A DNA stretch of 64,000 bases, from the NCBI GenBank assembly GCA_052327205.1, contig CM126208.1, forward strand, positions 71,362,001-71,426,000. Direction: 5' to 3'. The DNA is from Somniosus microcephalus. Taxonomy: Eukaryota. A program made the position numbers and the translations under genes. Each line of letters starts with the position of its first letter. Position 1 is the stretch's first letter. Under the pieces are notes generated by a model that ran no database searches, was not told the origin of the DNA, and saw only the letters and a list, made by a program, of their open reading frames with translations. Positions 4,760 through 49,100 of this stretch are shown here, one piece after another.

Positions 4760-4900
4760 ACAATCTGATGAAGGGTCCCAGACCTGAAACGTTAACGCTG
4801 TTTCTCTCTCTACGGATGCTGCCTGGCTTGCTGAGTTTTTCCAGCATTTTCTGTTGTTATTTCAGATTTCCAACATCCGCAGTATTTTGCTATTATACTG
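4760..4900 (+). mobile_element. Short Penelope-like element terminus with minimal hammerhead core, flanked by a 10-bp target-site duplication
   Basis: CTGATGA(4765-4771)-AGGGTC CCA GACCT-GAAACGTT followed by the family tail ...GATGCTGCCTG...CCAGCATTTTCTG...TTCAGATTTCC; TCGTCAAATA repeated at 4750-4759 and 4901-4910. Confidence 0.8.
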
Positions 4901-18380: not shown

Positions 18381-20564
18381 AAGTGTTTGTGCAGATTATC
18401 ACTCCGTTTTTTAAAATCTTTCCCTACTAAGCCCAGCGCAGTAAATTTCTAATACAGCACATTAATGGGAAAACAGGCATGTCACTCAAACAACTCAACA
18501 ATATCCTGCGCTGATCATGAAACTGCATATGTTGCCAACCTACTCTTAAGTGAGGGTCAACGGTTGTTTTCTGGTTTAGCAGAGAGGGTACAGCCCAAGG
18601 CAATTTCTGATTACCACCACCCCCCCCGCCCCCCTCAGCACCAGAAAGTTTAAAACCTCAGTTCTAACAACATGCTACATATGGTTACACAAAGACAAAC
18701 ACTGTACAATGAACAGGGCTTTGACATTTCCAAAAAAAAATAAAGTTCTTATACCCTTAAATTGATGTCATGAACAAAGGGTATAAATAACTGAACCTTG
18801 CTGTCACTTGGATTTCAGAATATCTAATGGTGATGTTCACCTGAACTATGGAAAACACCAGCTGCACAATTATGTATCTTGTCTTCCAAATTTGGGTAGT
18901 GACTGGCAAGAACATTTTCCATGAAGTGCCACTGGTCACTGGTCCATCACTGGCGGTGGTTAGTATTATTTGAGGTGGCAAATAATGATGATCAGACAAG
19001 GTGCCTATTTATTGCATTTCACACCGATGCTGGGACAGAGTGTGTTGCTCAAGCAGAGAACTGTGACCATCAAGCATTGTTCTCCCCTTTTCACCAAATC
19101 AGCATGCCACCTGTCTCTGCGGGAGAACCAATAGGACATCTGACAGTCACCCTCAAAATCCAGGAAAAAGATGCTGCTGATAGAACATCTAATGTGTAAG
19201 TATATACACACACCACTTGGGCATGTTATCTGAATCCCCTCTCAGAGATCCTCATGTACTCAATTAAACCCATATACTTAGCTTCAACTAAACATTACAA
19301 GATGACAAGAAAATTATGGATGAGCAAGGCCATTTGGCTCATTGTCTTAGTTCATCGATTCACAAATACCCTACAGTTCCCCCCAACACCACATCCAATT
19401 GTTTCTTACATGATTTCAGGGTTTGTCCTGCCACTACTAATCTGGGGTCCATTCCATACATTGATCGCTCTGAAAAATTTCCTGACGACATTAATCCTAA
19501 ATTTGCCTTTCACTAATTTGAACCTGTATTTCCTCGTCTTACTCTTGCAATTTAATTTAGTCATATTCCATATTTACATTTTCCACTCCCTTAACTATCT
19601 TACACACCTCTACAAAAGATCACCTCTCTGACACCTCCTTTCCAGGCTGAAAAGCCCACAAAAAACGACCAATTCCTCTCTTCTACCCCTCCTCCCTTCA
19701 GCGGTCTAGGTCCCATGCTCTGGAAATGCCTCCCTGTACCACTCTGCCTCTCCACCCCACTCTACTCCTTTTAAGATCCTCTATATGAAGTTTGTGATCA
19801 TCCCTCCTATATCTCCATCTTTGGACCAGCATCCATTTCTTTTTGATTACACCTCTGTGAAGTGCCTAAGGATGTTTTTCTATGTTGAAAGTGCTATATA
19901 AACACAAGTAGTTGTTATTTCTAACTTTCAAAACAGTGAAACAAAAAAGAAACAGAACATTAATCTACGTTTTGTGATGGATTTCCTGTTTCTGTTCACA
20001 AGGTATTGCAGAATAATGAAATGAACTACGGTACAAAGATTTACAAACTAGCTTTTTATCTTCAGTCATAATGCTGTATTAAGGATAAACCTAACTGCTC
20101 ATTTCATCTAATGGCGTATTGGTTAAATGCATTGCATGTTTTGATGCTGAGCTATATAAACAAGAACTAATTGAAACAGAATGTTTCCTGACAAACTAGG
20201 ATGCATTTTTCACAGGATACTGAAAATACCAAGTTCAGAGTCTGTTACTGTGTGTTGAGGATATATATGAATTATGTACATGCAGGAATAAAAAGAGAAA
20301 ATGTGAAATATAAACACATGGTGCTGGAAATACACAATATCCGCTATGAAAATTGATTAATTCTTTGGCTCAAGTCATTCATCAGAACGTATTCTCATGA
20401 TCCCACCTAAAACTACAACAATTTTCATTTATCCAGTGTCTATAACGGAGCAAAACATTTCATAGGCGTAATCAAAACAAAAGAAAGCTAAGCCAAAGGC
20501 GGGGGGGGGGGGGGGGGGTGCACAGGCCATGTTACAATAGTGGAACGAGGCAGCCTTAATGATT

Positions 20565-20670
20565 AGGGGTTCTGATGAAAGGTCATCGACCTGAAACGTT
20601 AACTCTGTTTCTCTCTCCACAGATGCTGCCTGACCTGCAGAGTATTTCCAGCATTTCCTCTTTTTATTAT
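20565..20670 (+). mobile_element. Penelope-like terminus with intact minimal hammerhead motif and 14-bp TSD
   Basis: GGGGTT-CTGATGA-A-AGGTC ATC GACCT-GAAACGTT-AACTCT; TTAATGATTAGGGG (20556-20569) versus TTAATGATGAGGGG (20670-20683). Confidence 0.82.
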
Positions 20671-20879
20671 TAATGATGAGGGGAATCTGGGTTGAATGGG
20701 ACACTGAAGTTGCAAGTAGTCTGGTTCAGCCTGAGACAGTGGCTGGGGAGGGGGTGGAATCAGTAGCATGGAAATGGAGTTTAGGGTTAAAGACTTTGGC
20801 TTTGGACTTCTCAATGTTTAGCTGCCGTTCTAATGAAGAGTCTCGCTGGAAACATTAGCTTATATTATGCCTTAAAAAG

Positions 20880-21008
20880 GCAAAATACTATGAATGGTGG
20901 AAATCTGAAATATCAATAGAAAATGCTGGAAATACTCAGCAGGTCAGGCATCATCCATGGAGAGCGAAACCGTTAACGTTTCAGGTCTGTGAGCTTTTGT
21001 CAGAACTG
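20880..21008 (-). mobile_element. Penelope-like terminus of the same family, hammerhead core mutated (CTGACAA)
   Basis: Reverse complement reads CAGTTCTGACAAAAGCTCACAGACCTGAAACGTTAAC plus the family tail. Confidence 0.8.
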
Positions 21009-21347
21009 GAAAATGTTACAGATGTAAAGAGGTTTTAAGCAAGCACAGAGGCAGGTTAGATGATTGGGGACAGGGGGTGAAGATGGTTGGGGGTGGGGGG
21101 AGAGACTTCAGTTACATCTTTCAAATGCTGAACGACTGTGCATTTAAAAAATTTAATACATTTGCACTCATTTGAAATTTTCTTCATCTCTGGGACCTGG
21201 TTTCAAATCAGACTGACAGGATGAAAGTCTCCTCTTTCAGGTGCTTTAATGGCACTAGCAAAATGAAGTCAAATCCGTCCCAATTCAGCTTCCTGAGAGA
21301 GTCAGCCCACAATATAAAACTACCCACAATTCAACATGAATTGATAC

Positions 21348-22726: not shown

Positions 22727-22862
22727 AAAAGCAAAAACTGCGGATGCTGGAAATCTGAAATAAAAACAGAAAATGCTGGAAATACTCAGCAGGTCAGGCA
22801 GCAGCTGTGGAGAGAGATGCTATCTGGCCTAAGTGTTTCCAGCATTTTCTGTTTTTATTTAT
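22727..22862. mobile_element. Fold-back (inverted) copy of the Penelope-like terminus lacking the hammerhead
   Basis: AATAAAAACAGAAAATGCTGGAAA ... TTTCCAGCATTTTCTGTTTTTATT inverted arms. Confidence 0.75.
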
Positions 22863-27754: not shown

Positions 27755-28300
27755 TACGGTAGCAGAATGGTTAAGTTACTGGACTTATAATCCAGAGAAG
27801 GTGAATCCAAATCCCACCATGGTTTGAGAATTTGAATTCAGTTTAAAATAAAAAGCTGGTATCAGTAATCCTGACCATGCAGCTGTCAAATTGTCGTAAA
27901 ACCCAACCATTTCACTGAAACAAAAGTAAAATATTGCGGATGCTGAAAATCTTTAATAAAAGCAGAAAATGCTGAAAATACTCCCAAGAGTTAACCTGAA
28001 ACGTTAACTTGGTTTCTCTCTCCACAGATGCTGCCTGACCTGAGTATTCACAGAATTTTTTTTAAAATTCCAACTCTTTCAATAATGTACTTTAGTGCCA
28101 TCCTTATCCGGTCTGGCCTATTTGTGACTCAAGTCCCACAACAACATGGTTGACTCTTAACTGCTCTGTGTAGTACCCTAGCAAGCCACTCAGTTGTATC
28201 AAATCGCTACAATACAGTGATTCAAGGTGACCCACTAGAAATGGACAATAAATGCCAACTTCTCCACTGAAGTCCTCTCCCAAGAATGAATTTAATAAAA
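27755..28300 (+). mobile_element. tRNA-head SINE sharing its tail with the second LINE family, interrupted by a Penelope-like piece (related copies near 6380-7100, 25130-25360, 51930-52205)
   Basis: Head GCAGAATGGTTAAGTTACTGGACT...CAAATCCCACCATGG; tail ATGGACAATAAATGCC similar to 12590-12630. Confidence 0.55.
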
Positions 28301-30274: not shown

Positions 30275-30751
30275 CTGCACTCAAACAGGAAAACAAAAAG
30301 CCATTTACAAATAAGGTTTTGCTTTCAAATTGACGCCACATGGGATTGAGGGGGTAATCACATTATTTAAATTATAGCCATAAATTTCAACGTCTTTCGG
30401 ATCCAAAGTGTAAATTGAATTTAAGATTGATTGTTAATGCGAAGATGATTTTTGTAAGTGCACAGACCTCAATTTCATTTACTCTTGGAGGAGGAGGAAG
30501 GCTAGACTCCATTGGAAACTCCATGGAAGGTTTGTATACTTAAAAAGTGCTGATGCAGACAAGACACAGCTGTGTTGACTATATTGCTGCAACCAACCAG
30601 GTTAGCGACTGAACCAACTGGTAAAACTGGAGGATGAGTAATCGTTGGCTGCTCTCATGCACTGAGAAGCTGGTGAACGAGCACTGGCAGAGGTTGACTG
30701 TCTTTCCAGCTTTGGAATTTCACAGACAATTAACAAGTGATTTAAAAAGTA

Positions 30752-30906
30752 CAAAAGCAGAATACTGCAAGTGCTGGAAACCTGAAATAAAAACAGAAAA
30801 TGCTGGAAATACTCAGGTCAGGCAGCATCTGTGGAGAGAAACAGATCGATCGCTCCACAGATGCTGCCTGACCTGCTGAGTATTTCCAGCATTTTCTGTT
30901 TTTAAT
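30752..30906. mobile_element. Fold-back Penelope-like terminus with flanking direct repeat
   Basis: Arms AAAAACAGAAAATGCTGGAAATACTCAG..GTCAGGCAGCATCTGTGGAG / CTCCACAGATGCTGCCTGAC..CTGAGTATTTCCAGCATTTTCTGTTTTT; TTTAAAAAGTACAAAAGC at 30741 and TTTAAAAGTACAAAGC at 30906. Confidence 0.8.
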
Positions 30907-31679
30907 TTAAAAGTACAAAGCTCCAAAATCCAATTCCAAAGTGCTGTAACTCCTGGTTTGGGTTTTCTGCCTAGGTGACATCAGGACAAATGAGACCAGC
31001 AGAAAGTGTTGGCCTTTTTTTGGGTCTGAATTCGGTCCCCATTTCTTTGGCTCATGCTGGGGTACAGTTCTATAGCAGTCAGTTACTCCTCGCTACCTAC
31101 AGTAAGTGACCGTTCTTCACACGCAACCCTAAACAGCAAGTGTTGGAAGATTATTCAGCTGTAGGATGCATGACATCCAAGCCTAATTGTGGCCTTATCA
31201 CACATCTAGCACAAAACAGTGTACAGAAGAAATGCGTATCAAAGTAACAGAGTATGTTATAGTACAGTGCACTTCTTCACTGCTGCAGTCACTTGATGCC
31301 ATATCCTTTGGGTACTGGCATCACCACTTCTATTATCTTTTCAAATCAAGTCAGTGCCAGTATCACACAATTATGCAACACAAAAAATATTTTTAAAAAC
31401 ATCAGTAATCCAGCAACAAGTCCTTTCAGCAGCTTCAGCAGAGAGAGTTGGAAGATGAAACATTTCCCTACAAGGAGTCATTGCAGCAGAACCCATTGTG
31501 GATAAAAATTTGAAGCAAAGGAATATAGAAGACTACAGGGAGATAGAGCAGTGGAATGAGTTTGCAATTGCTCTAGCAGTGGTACAGATGTGATGGATTG
31601 AATGTCTTTCTAGTGTGCTGTAAACCTCTCTAGTTCTGTTATTGTCCATGAAGGAATACATCCTGGTTTATTACTGAAT

Positions 31680-44600: not shown

Positions 44601-45944
44601 TTCTTTGTTCCCCATTATAAATTCCCCTGATTCTGACTGCAAGGGACCTACGCTTGACACCACCAATTTTTTTCTCTTCACATATCTATAAAAGCTTTTA
44701 CAGTCAGTTTTTATGTTCCGTGCAAGCTTACTCTCATATTCTATTTTCCCTTTCTTTATTAATCCCTTTGTCCTCCTTTGTTGAATCCTAAACTGCTCCC
44801 AATCCTCAGGATTATTGCTTTTTCTGGCCAATTTATATGTCCGCTCCTTGGATCTTATGCTATCCCTAATTTCCCTCGTTAGCCACGGTTGAGTCACCTA
44901 TTTTGTTTTATTTTTATGCCAAACTGGGATGAACAAATTCTGTAGCTCATCCATTCGGTCTTTGAATGTTTGCCATTGCCTATCCACCGTCAACCCTTTG
45001 AGTGACATTCCCCAATCAATCCTACCCAACTCGCTCCTCAGATCATCGTAGTTTCCTTTATTTAAATTGAGGACCCTAGTCTCCGAGTCAACTACTTCAT
45101 TCTCCGTCTTAATGAAGAATTCGATCATATTATGATCGCTCCGACCCAAGGGGCCTCGTACAATAAGACTGCTAATTAATCCTTTCTCGTTACATAATAC
45201 CCAGTCTAAGATGGCCTGATCTCTGGTTGGTTCCTCGACATATTGGTCCAGGAAACCATCCCGTAAACACTCCAGGAATTCCTCCTCCACAGTATTGTTA
45301 CTAATTTGGTTGGCCCAATCTATATGAAGGTTAAAGTCACCCATGATGACTGCTGTGCCCTTATTGCACGCTTCTTTAATTTCCCTTTTAATGCCATCCC
45401 CAACCTCCGCCTTACTGTTTGGAGGTCTATATACCACTCCCACTAACGTTTTTTTCCCTTTAGTATTTCTCAATTCGACCCATACAGATTCCACATCATC
45501 AGAGCTAATATCCTTCATTACAATTGCATTAATCCCTTCTTTAACCAGTAATGCTACCCCACCTCCCTTTCCTTTTTGCCTATCTTTCCTGAATATCGAA
45601 TACCCCTGGATGTTGAGTTCCCAGTCTTGACCATCCTTGAGCCACATTTCCGTAATCCCAACCAAATCTTATTGGTTTACTTCTATTTGCGCAGCCAATT
45701 CATCCACCTTATTACAAATGCTCCTTGCATTAAGACACAAAGCCTTCAGGCTTGTTTTTTTTAATGCTCTTAGACCTATTAGAATTATTATTTACTGTGG
45801 CCACGTTTGATTTAAACCGTTGATTTCTCAGACTGCCACTTTTGTTTTTCTCCTTCCTATCTTTTGCTTTTATCCTCGTTTCCCTTTCCTCTGTCTCCCT
45901 GCTCAGGTTCCCAACCCCCTGCCATCTGACATGATTCTCTGACT

Positions 45945-46013
45945 ATTAGCACTGTTGCCTCACAGCGCCAGGGACCTCTATCTGCACTGTGGGGTTTCTG
46001 TGATTCTGTGATA
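45945..46013 (+). mobile_element. Internally deleted HE1-like SINE (head joined to tail) nested in the CR1
   Basis: TTAGCACTGTTGCCTCACAGCGCCAGGGACC followed directly by TCTATCTGCACTGTGGGGTTTCTGTGA, identical to the tail at about 27585-27611. Confidence 0.65.
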
Positions 46014-46029
46014 TAAGCTGTGTCTTTAT

Positions 46030-46165
46030 GCATTTCTCCACTTCACCTGAAGAAGGAGCAGCGCTCCGAAAGCTTGTGATTTCAAATAAAGCTGTTGGAC
46101 TATAACCTGGTGTTGTGTGACTTCTTACATTTGTCCACCCCAGTCCAACTCCGGCATCTCCACAC
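46030..46165 (+). mobile_element. Penelope-like terminus, second family, nested in the CR1
   Basis: CACCTGAAGAAGGAGCAGCGCTCCGAAAGCTTGTGATTTCAAATAAAGCTGTTGGACTATAACCTGG...; hammerhead motif followed by AATAAA. Confidence 0.75.
46042..46079 (+). ncRNA. Minimal type-I hammerhead ribozyme motif
   Basis: Stem I TCAC/GTGA, core CTGAAGA (46047-46053), stem II GGAGC-AGC-GCTCC, GAAA (46068-46071), palindromic AGCT instead of stem III, predicted cleavage after CUU (46075). Confidence 0.7.
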
Positions 46166-49100
46166 CATTTTAGTTTAAACCCTCCCTCCCCCACAGCACT
46201 AGCAAACACTCCCCCGAGGACATCGGTTCCAGCCCTGCCCAGGTGCAAACTGTCCGGTTTGAACTGGTCCCACCGCCCCCAGAACCGGTTCCAATGTCCC
46301 AGGAACTTGAATCCCTCCCCCTGGCACCATTCCTCTAGCCACGTATTCATCTGAAGTATCCTTCTATTTCTGCTCTGACTAGCACATGGCACTGGTAGCA
46401 ATCCTGAGATTACGACCTTTGAGGTCCTGTTTTTTAATTTATCTCCTAACTCCCTATATTCCGCTTTTAGGACCTCATCCCGCTTTTTACCTATATCGTT
46501 GGTGCCTATATGCACCATGACAACTGGCTGTTCACCCTCCCCTTCCAAGATGTTCTGCAGCCGCTCGGAGACATCCTTGACCCTGGCACCAGGGAGGCAA
46601 CACACCATCCTGGAGTCTCGTTTGCGGCCACAGAAACGCCTATCTATTCCCCTTACAATAGAATCCCCTATTACTATAGCTCTGCCCCAAGCCAATGCTA
46701 CATGCAAGGAACCCTTTGTCAGCACGGAATTCTGATGAATGGTCTAGATCAGAAATGTCAGCCTCCCTCCCCTTCCAATATTACCAGACCCAATCCACAT
46801 CACTAACATGCTATACCACAACGAAAATGAAGTGGAGAATTCGATCTTGCCCAGGGAGCATGGTAATAAGGGGAGAAAGGGATGGAAAAAAAGTGACAAA
46901 ATTATTTTTTTGGTCTAGCGTTGATTTGATAACTGTCCTGTAAAATTACATGTGGAGATTAGCAGCCAGCTAAAGCCAATGTTGTACTGGGCCTGTCCTG
47001 ATACTGTTTGAAGTTTCATCAGTTACAAGCCTGAGAGGCAGAGAGATCATTACACTTATTGCTGTGCGATTGAGTCAGTTTGCAGTTAACTGACATTTCC
47101 TTTTAGAATTTCAGAGGTCAGATATTTAAATTTGGGTGACTCCCTATAACTCTTTTCCATGATAAGGATGCAGCTTGAAATCTCAGAGGCCAGTCAGTTG
47201 CAGTCCATTTTCCTTCACCAAAAACACTGCACCTCTTCTAAAGTCATTTACACCAGATTAGCTCAGCTCTTAGAATTGTGATCTTTTTATAATTTTGTCC
47301 ATGACTGTAATATATAATTACACAATATTTATGACCGTTTGAGCTTGTTCAGCTTTTGTAAAATAAATATGCTGCATATTTTAAACTTGAAATAAGAACT
47401 GATGGGATATTCTATCGTCTTCGAAGATGTGAGTGAGATCTCACGAAGGCACAAGATAAATCGAGTAGCTAAAATTGAGCAGCTAAACTCGAGCAACTAA
47501 AAACAATTAGCAGACAAGGTTTGCTGTTCCTTTCCTGTGTGCATTTTTAAAAACATATACATTAGTAGAATGAAGGAGACAATCAGTTTCACTGTGTTGG
47601 TCCATATTATCGCAAAAAAATTGATCAGGCATAACTGAGCATTGACACAGAGCCAGGTCACATGAGGCATGCTAAGATTTTTGGTGACTCACTTTTTTTG
47701 GGCTGCTGTTTTTACAATCTCTCAAAGTCTCAAGTCTCAGAGCTTTTTAAAAAAAATGCTGAACAATTCATTATTCTCTGCTTGAATGTGCAGCCTCGAG
47801 TAATCAGGAGCAAGAAATTCAGCAAGTCAACATACAAGTCATCCGGCAAAGCACAGAAATCGCCGAGTGGCAGGGTGATTCTGTGGGGTGAGACTGAAAG
47901 CAGAGTTTTGGAGCTCTTTGTTCAACAGCATCAACAAACTTTCCTTGTGGAACTGCACAACTCGAGTTGTTTTGAGCCTGATGGTGCCTAAACTGATCGA
48001 CTTTCATTTATGAAGGTTTCAGCCCATTCTCAAGGACAATATGGGCATCTCCACCACAGCTATTCATTAAAAATCCCACCACTTTAATTGTACTTCCTGT
48101 CACTTGATCATAAAACATTATACTCGTGGAGAACTCTGAAGTCTAGTCTCTCCAGGCCAGGAAGTGGAACACAGATAGCATTGCACATTAACGTCAATAC
48201 ACTATGGAGATTTGTAAGTCACTTTAATACGATCTTGTACAACACTCTTAATTCTCAAATTGTTGCCACTACCAGTACTTCACCCCAACCATGGACAGCT
48301 GTTCCAAACAACCAAACATTGGAAGGACAAGAACTACAACTGCGCTGTTGGGTGTTTTCCCACATTTTTGGATTTGAGAATTTCAAACATCCACCTTGGT
48401 ACTTTATTGAAATCCTGCTGGGGGAAAAATTGTGCCTGGAGTACAACTCCATGGGAATTTCACATCTGCCATTAGGCTATACTGAAGCCCAAGCGATAGA
48501 ACTGAAGTATATATGGCAAAGAAAAGGTTTGCTGCTACAATTTTTAGCTGGAAAATTATCAGAAAGGAGCGGTTTAATCCTGAGCAAAGCTGGTAGAAAA
48601 GTCTCGTCATCACTGATCCATAACCAACTACAGGTACTGCCATAACAAACAACTCCACGCTACAAAGGGGAGATTTTACACACCACACACAAAATCAATT
48701 GTATGTTCCCCGTGCAAGAATTTCTTCCCATAAGTTCCTCTAAAACTTCTTTCCTTTATACCCTGATTTTGTTAGCTTTCCTTTACTCCTCTCCTAAACA
48801 CATGCAAATGCTTTGTCCAAGTAGCTAGTGATGAAATGTGACTCCAGGCAGTGAATACCATAGGCTAACCAATCATGGAGGTCCAGCACATCGGAGCCTG
48901 ATCCTGCACACATACAAACAGGGGTGCACTTTACAGCAAGTGTCACGGACAAACAGCAGCAGGAAGCTGGAGTCATTTTTCATACTCAGGGCACTGAGCC
49001 CAACTCCTGCACCTGCTGCCATCAGCAAATTTGGCACACACGAAAGACTGAACCCGGACCCTCCTGGTCTGTATGAGTTAACACAAGGTGGTGCCTTCAT

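Follow-up and report, generated by a model that had tools for sequence, protein, structure and literature searches.

The question raised by this locus is whether a hammerhead-like motif in the window (the whole 64-kb stretch of DNA analysed here) is an intact ribozyme belonging to a small mobile element of its own, or a piece of something larger. Read directly from the sequence, the motif comprises GGGGTT (20566-20571), CTGATGA (20572-20578), an extra A (20579), AGGTC-ATC-GACCT (20580-20592), which forms stem II with 5 bp and a 3-nt loop, GAAA (20593-20596), CG, TT (20599-20600) and AACTCT (20601-20606), and the letters given in the original prediction were confirmed position by position. The core elements CUGANGA, GAAA and UH are present in order around helix II; helix III is absent, positions 15.2-16.2 form the palindrome ACGU, and A20579 is the extra base before 10.1. 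The cut is predicted between 20600 and 20601, after a GUU triplet. Stem I had been drawn with 6 bp, including two G.U pairs, within limits of 20556-20683. These pairs exist and the insertion does lie inside those limits, but the 14 bp at each end are a target-site duplication (TSD): they form a direct repeat with 13/14 identical positions, a match equalled in 12/2000 random pairs, so the four Gs of the drawn stem I are host DNA, with at most the last of them shared by microhomology. The insertion proper is 100 bp long (Table 1). In this copy, stem I consists of 2 element pairs plus 4 from host DNA, and the description "intact" holds for the core but not for stem I, two thirds of which, as drawn, is host DNA. 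In long relatives, the stem I position reads CCAGTT (28-32/33 per column), giving a family-1 stem I of AGUU/AACU with 4 bp, within the 4-5 bp of helix I in minimal hammerheads.

Table 1. Positions of the insertion, its motif and the related copies in the window
Feature	Position	Strand	Remark
5' copy of the TSD	20556..20569	+	Host DNA; last four G form the outer part of stem I as drawn
Insertion, terminal 100 bp of a family-1 pseudo-LTR, tail-less	20570..20669	+	Closest relatives 95-97% identical; longer copies reach EN and RT
Hammerhead core, stem II (A-U closed) and self-complementary ACGU replacing helix III	20572..20600	+	From sequence and descriptor; cut predicted after 20600
3' strand of stem I	20601..20606	+	AACU pairs with AGUU in long copies; 6 bp locally through host Gs
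3' copy of the TSD	20670..20683	+	13/14 match to 20556-20569
Decayed family-1 copy facing the insertion, core damaged, with tail and upstream TATA-like stretch	20878..21058	-	Would pair with the insertion in read-through RNA
Nearest same-strand copy with intact core and stem II, 15.8 kb upstream, lacking the 5' strand of stem I	4764..4891	+	
Family-2 pseudo-LTR end with minimal hammerhead	46011..46165	+	Core starts at 46047; 3' limit set by eye; covariation partner

The full hammerhead descriptor had 9 matches in 580 kb of sampled genome, compared with 0-1 in each of 10 shuffles, and 2 matches in the window, namely this copy and a family-2 copy at 46047; a scan of metagenomes gave 2 matches, which look like chance. 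The Rfam search of the window returned no hammerhead match, and its four below-gathering hits are hairpin artefacts, the best of them caused by the hairpin that the insertion forms with the neighbouring inverted copy. Three head-to-head inverted pairs of family-1 stubs (22728-22859, 27921-28079 and 30751-30912) likewise form long hairpins, one of which produced a spurious mir-70 hit.

The original prediction assigned this minimal type-I hammerhead, lacking helix III, to a Penelope-like element (PLE), an assignment supported by the descriptor and by linked RT and GIY-YIG domains. The further claim of a separate mini-element was not borne out, since longer copies continue unbroken into GIY-YIG and RT coding sequence, which makes the insertion the terminal piece of an ORF-bearing element. 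Of the 30 best relatives retrieved, L015 and L017 include over 1,185 bp of upstream sequence that runs into the coding region; its frames give matches to RVT_1 (E 1.5e-5) and GIY-YIG (E 0.0015), each below the curated Pfam cut-off. An RT with a C-terminal GIY-YIG domain in one ORF linked to the repeat was found in three relatives (L032, L151 and L152), all of them broken copies, and the best Atlas matches (0.96) carry HTH_animal plus GIY-YIG. In L151 and L152, the order is partial pseudo-LTR, hammerhead and then ORF. The ATG of CUGAUGA was rejected as the start of this ORF, as long copies mostly read CUGACGA at this place (21/33).

Both families (family 2 is described below) carry a CX4CxxC linker between RT and EN, which falls within the CX2-5CxxC pattern that marks Neptune and also Nematis (PMC8557442). 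Vertebrate PLEs are described as Neptune and Poseidon only (Li 2026, bioRxiv 10.64898/2026.07.22.740005), and the element appears Neptune-type, a placement made from the Cys linker rather than from an RT tree. In a sample of young copies (the first 100 of 3,156 exact matches to a 61-nt anchor downstream of the cut site, all on contig C1), a 34-nt tail is present in 53, absent in 42 and partial in 5, and 24 copies have a head-to-head inverted partner; the 20570-20669 copy is a stub of the tail-less kind. The traits of EN+ PLEs are thus found together, namely a partial-tandem pseudo-LTR, 5' truncation, an inverted 5' partner, a tail of 30-40 bp and a short TSD. The tail and the inverted partner are standard in PLEs (PMC8557442, PMC11167929), and in the anole element, the tail marks two internal RT start sites (PMC11167929). 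Taken as a whole, the insertion is probably a 5'-truncated end of a Neptune-type PLE flanked by a TSD, whose hammerhead is the motif of its own pseudo-LTR, is predicted to cut only as a dimer and is likely inert at this site.

Compared with the minimal hammerheads in the pseudo-LTRs of metazoan PLEs, including fish Neptune (Cervera and De la Pena 2014, PMC4209133), family 1 is alike in the core, the extra base between 9 and 10.1, the palindromic 15.2-16.2, the lack of helix III, the short helix I, the pseudo-LTR location and the occurrence mostly as single dispersed copies from truncated elements; it differs in the closing pair of stem II, which is G-C in those motifs and A-U or G.U in family 1. 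The Poseidon element PAc of the green anole (Frangieh 2024, PMC11167929) resembles family 1 in having a hammerhead near the pseudo-LTR end, two 3' ends that produce a 30-40-nt tail, and uncut RNA as the apparent template. On the other hand, family 1 has the Neptune-type Cys linker between RT and EN, and the ORF of PAc starts in the ribozyme, whereas in two full-length family-1 copies an in-frame stop lies between the ribozyme and the long ORF. By the descriptor, the hammerhead is therefore of a known kind, a minimal PLE hammerhead in a Neptune-type pseudo-LTR, and the copy is ordinary.

The family to which it belongs is large. In the 6.4-Gb assembly that holds the window, a genome pattern search found 27,965 family-1 copies with intact core and stem II and none with the reversed control, as expected from the very large dispersed family that had been foreseen; a second pattern gave 23,156 matches (control 3), and 95 of the 100 listed belong to family 2. 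Family-1 ends numbered 37 in 56 evenly chosen 10-kb stretches, approximately one per 15 kb, which gives a genome-wide estimate of about 430,000 (bootstrap 265,000-600,000). The earlier count of about ten relatives in the window agrees with ten family-1 pieces, including the 20570-20669 copy, although only that copy passes the whole descriptor; the extrapolation from them was right about a large family, but the window is denser than the genome as sampled. The family had been supposed to be invisible to ORF-based annotation; repeat annotation finds it easily, and larger hammerhead counts have been published. The 27,965 copies, together with about 23,000 that are mostly family 2, exceed the minimal-hammerhead counts of coelacanth (4,000) and Xenopus (9,000) (PMC4209133), obtained by a different search method, and remain below the 126,247 canonical hammerhead motifs of axolotl (PMC7229834). 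The family-1 ribozyme region, again with this short-copy profile, also occurs in the contigs of sequencing runs X1, X5, X9 and X13, from four differently coded organisms. On contig C7, two 7.5-kb stretches at 239.69 and 241.20 Mb (L154 and L155), 99.96% identical including their flanks, contain the same long family-1 copy and may reflect a recent segmental duplication or an assembly repeat.

Family 2 is a second Cys-linker PLE, whose protein is 31% identical to that of family 1 over 336 aa. Core, extra A and stem lengths are retained, as is a palindrome (AGCU), while 7/9 stem pairs are changed on both sides between the families, compared with 0-1 in slid controls, so that covariation in stems I and II, proposed at the outset as a check, is present. 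The alignment contains 12 hand-picked rows, 11 of them distinct, and since the covariation amounts to one two-lineage comparison, the 0/500 shuffles are not a probability. Core conservation among young copies had also been expected. Inserted copies decay neutrally, and core G8, at a CpG site, differs in 8/33 long young copies; the core is nevertheless kept between source lineages, and it is only there that selection is visible. At the sequence level, selection on the motif between source lineages is seen as the kept core plus covarying stems, in one deep comparison. Every stem of the family-2 copy in the window is Watson-Crick. The closing pair of stem II is A-U in the 20570-20669 copy and G-C in family 2, and across family 1 the 27,965 matches with A-U or G.U compare with 499 with G-C and 189 with A.C; family 1 thus lacks G10.1-C11.1, which is called highly conserved and is a typical trait outside the published descriptor (PMC4209133). 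At 10.1-11.1 within family 1, G-C (499) barely exceeds its A.C background (189); the background ratio of G to A is 20:12.

L280, L287 and L288 contain runs of some 380 codons uninterrupted by stops, and family 2 seems the younger of the two. Directly after its stop codon, approximately 345-200 nt upstream of the family-2 core, lies a decayed second hammerhead with a paired stem II, a GUC triplet, three lost core positions and a family-1-like downstream part. It was seen by eye in all ten family-2 copies examined (L275, L276, L280, L287-L289, L292, L294, L296 and L300) and may be a captured or ancestral repeat end that was fixed in the source lineage, as a single event.

The positions at which copies begin carry further information. 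With core C3 taken as 0 and four inverted pairs counted as two each, 46 of the 100 young copies start in -10..+9, 4 in -20..-11 and 33 further upstream, while 7 start in +10..+24 and 10 in +25..+31. In other words, 46 of the 83 copies reaching +9 stop within these 20 nt (-10..+9), compared with 11/37 in the next 80 nt. A weaker pile-up is seen in family 2 (the first 30 of 9,084 anchor matches), where 7/26 stop in -10..+9 and 4/19 in the next 80 nt. Stops in -10..+9 occur in 16/53 tailed and 26/42 tail-less copies; since both kinds stop at one place, position rather than length decides, and a constant-length drop-off of RT is ruled out by this common stop site. In family 1, the sequence TTAAAA lies near -35 together with CCAGTTC and an initiator-like A at -4; similarly, family 2 has TATATAAG or TATATATG near -37 together with CCACTTC and an initiator-like A at -7, and the spacing from box to initiator A is about 30 nt in both families. 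Judged against the TATA and initiator consensus motifs, the family-1 box is a weak TATA match. A similar pair of box and initiator is present in a rotifer pseudo-LTR (PMC3846280).

ORF-bearing copies behave differently. In a sample anchored at the ORF start (the first 30 of 460 matches), 14 copies extend to the ribozyme on the same strand, 11 of them as far as +9; only 1/11 ends in -10..+9 (Fisher p 0.008), and the others extend 29 to 682 nt into the pseudo-LTR. With 1/11 at the proposed start, a simple run-off model needs an extra step, and the origin of ORF-bearing copies therefore lies in a template, or in a jump, reaching beyond this site. Candidates would be a circle formed by double cleavage, read-through of tandem copies, strand transfer, or a block that acts just after initiation only; a circle by double hammerhead cleavage has been proposed (PMC4209133). 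A recurrent junction from about 250 nt past the ribozyme, at the ORF start, back to the pseudo-LTR end was observed in L135 and L195 (2/100 young copies) and in one further contig, whose joint runs from 3244 to 2985 on L152; it is possibly a further RT start or a template jump.

Starts exactly at the cut site were considered as a sign of cleavage and rejected: of 10 such copies, eight share a terminal-repeat end and one more likely does, so that a single copy of the ten (L158) looks like a true end. The junction pattern at the cut site has 1,366 genome matches, compared with 0 at a control site. Both ends show a 3-bp duplication in 3/10 loci, with L231, L233 and L235 among the sites; in the remaining 7, a search of 1.5 kb did not locate the far end. 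The inserts, putatively Harbinger-type, are DNA transposons that have short terminal inverted repeats and land exactly at the predicted scissile bond of family-1 hammerheads (the window equivalent is 20598-20600), and approximately 8 or 9 of the 100 young copies carry one there. Among 23 random terminal-repeat matches, A occurs at -7 in 17 and C at -4 in 14, both of which the ribozyme core supplies. In family 2, 1/30 copies begin exactly at the cut. Because near-cut starts are mostly later insertions, the template was uncut, as was that of the anole element in vitro (PMC11167929). This transposon hot spot is a trap when cleavage is read from the ends of genomic copies.

By analogy with the anole element, the protein of the element would nick the target and start RT at an internal site of the RNA, some 100 or 135 nt past the ribozyme; RT would then copy uncut RNA and likely run off its 5' end, after which the end of the cDNA would join the target through microhomology. 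The 5' end of the RNA would lie at stem I, because the TATA-like box and the initiator are placed there. That the 5' pile-up represents run-off from the 5' end of the RNA is, in our view, slightly more likely than not. In the parent element, the same-strand 5' and 3' pseudo-LTR copies would pair through their ACGU palindromes and the ribozyme would act, probably aided by protein. The complete scheme, in which a Neptune RNA is capped at the first bases of stem I, uncut linear RNA yields hundreds of thousands of run-off stubs, and promoter-bearing full-length copies arise through a seamless template, most simply a circle made by dimeric cleavage of both pseudo-LTRs and ligation, is speculative and by our own reckoning improbable in full.

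A promoter inside the pseudo-LTR is also known for Penelope of D. virilis (Schostak 2008, PMC2377424), but that promoter is internal and has no TATA box, and transcription begins 46 bp ahead of a 75-bp intron. In D. virilis, an intron ending at helix I thus separates the start from the ribozyme, whereas the spacing in the present families points to stem I itself (PMC4209133, PMC2377424). Immediately upstream of the ribozyme, family 1 carries an acceptor-like polypyrimidine-CAG, and family 2 lacks an AG. This lack, and the absence by eye of a common upstream sequence in the stubs, led us to reject splicing to a fixed first exon as the source of the common 5' zone. Acceptor-like polypyrimidine-AG sites flank the ribozyme in a row (L152 2975-3160, window 20595-20622), one of them with a branch-point-like TTAAC that overlaps the cut site, and these could lead to exon capture in host introns.

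Instead of truncated ends of the long element, the stubs might constitute a true non-autonomous mini-element, in which promoter-bearing solo pseudo-LTRs are transcribed and mobilised in trans; this is possible, though on the unlikely side. About half of the young copies are stubs of 100-135 bp with one common 5' zone, which ORF-bearing copies do not share, and about a third retain the upstream box and could serve as sources; retrozymes, moreover, have been proposed to derive from pseudo-LTRs (bioRxiv 2026.07.22.740005). Yet by eye the stubs have no private sequence and hold their variants in common with long copies, and both ends are ragged apart from the common 5' zone; furthermore, a stub without the upstream box would not re-amplify from that promoter. 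The proposal is about which RNA served as source and does not conflict with the best explanation. Non-LTR retrozymes (Cervera and De la Pena 2020, PMC7229834; Li 2026) resemble the insertion in being short, non-coding, PLE-related and equipped with a type-I hammerhead, but they are head-to-tail tandems of 150-450 bp with two or more ribozymes, whereas the insertion is a single 100-bp piece with a TSD. As a single unit between TSD copies, with neighbours that are inverted or distant, the 20570-20669 copy is not a non-LTR retrozyme.

Another explanation, which we regard as conceivable but rather unlikely, is that the 5' pile-up arises after initiation, either because a protein-bound or dimerised hammerhead stops RT or because two RTs primed on opposite strands meet. 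The head-to-head partners in 24/100 copies, with many inverted arms ending at -1 to -9, are in keeping with such a block, as are the absence of a stop on second passage in ORF-bearing copies (the 1/11 given above) and the dependence of the anole ribozyme on protein (PMC11167929). The stop, however, lies on the far (5') side of the fold, which RT has already opened, and the promoter-like spacing in two diverged families would be left unexplained. Run-off from the RNA 5' end remains the preferred reading of the pile-up.

Less favoured again is the view that family 1 carries a vestigial motif, which has lost its cutting activity and persists for protein binding, for splicing or for no function at all; we consider it unlikely. 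Family 1 combines an A-U or G.U closing pair, a GUU triplet and a 4-bp stem I, all of which are expected to be weak, and its true 5' ends are not piled up at the cut site. The usual natural cleavage triplet is GUC (PMC1636495), eight of nine Xenopus dimers showed no cleavage (Li 2026), insertion in vitro proceeds without cleavage (PMC11167929), and Naiads thrive without hammerheads (PMC8557442). Against a vestige, the core is identical across two families whose proteins are only 31% alike, and the relic in the 3' UTR of family 2 has lost three core positions (by eye; one event).

With regard to the 20570-20669 copy itself, the hammerhead fold has -10.0 kcal/mol against a predicted minimum of -11.9 kcal/mol as a monomer, and -17.9 against -29.4 kcal/mol as a dimer. 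In the 505-nt read-through fold with the inverted neighbour, the predicted pairing probability of stems I and II is close to 0. No promoter-like box was found upstream of this copy. None of the 17 long ORFs of the window matched a host gene, short exons falling outside this test, and the hits obtained fit retroelement domains. A GDSL-esterase-like ORF (45949-46743, minus strand) adjoins an APE endonuclease ORF (44901-45668, minus strand); this is the arrangement expected of ORF1 and ORF2 in a CR1/L2-type LINE, and five further RT fragments are present in the window. Dimer cleavage of PLE hammerheads was reportedly obtained by Lunse in 2017. For published minimal PLE motifs, cleavage is weak in dimers and absent in monomers (PMC4209133). 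The 20570-20669 copy is likely inert, being promoter-less, distant from a partner and predicted to have its motif sequestered by the inverted neighbour. That it is an active ribozyme cutting a host transcript is most improbable: the core is intact and host Gs lengthen stem I to 6 bp, but helix III is missing, the nearest same-strand intact core is 15.8 kb away, the opposite-strand neighbour and the ORF results speak against it, and a single S. mansoni motif is inactive (PMC4209133).

A literature search, weak on subscription papers and Repbase, turned up no paper on these families in particular, nor one on a hot spot of 5' ends at the ribozyme; both families may appear in the supplements of PMC4209133 and of Li 2026, which sampled one chondrichthyan. 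While the single copy is ordinary, the family-level pattern is the part worth following. Two abundant families, covarying stems, a 5'-end hot spot and a predicted start make two questions testable, namely the role of PLE hammerheads (PMC8557442) and the regeneration of the pseudo-LTR (PMC2377424). If the complete scheme is true, the 5' ends recorded in the genome would give the first in vivo indication of PLE hammerheads regenerating the promoter of the pseudo-LTR.
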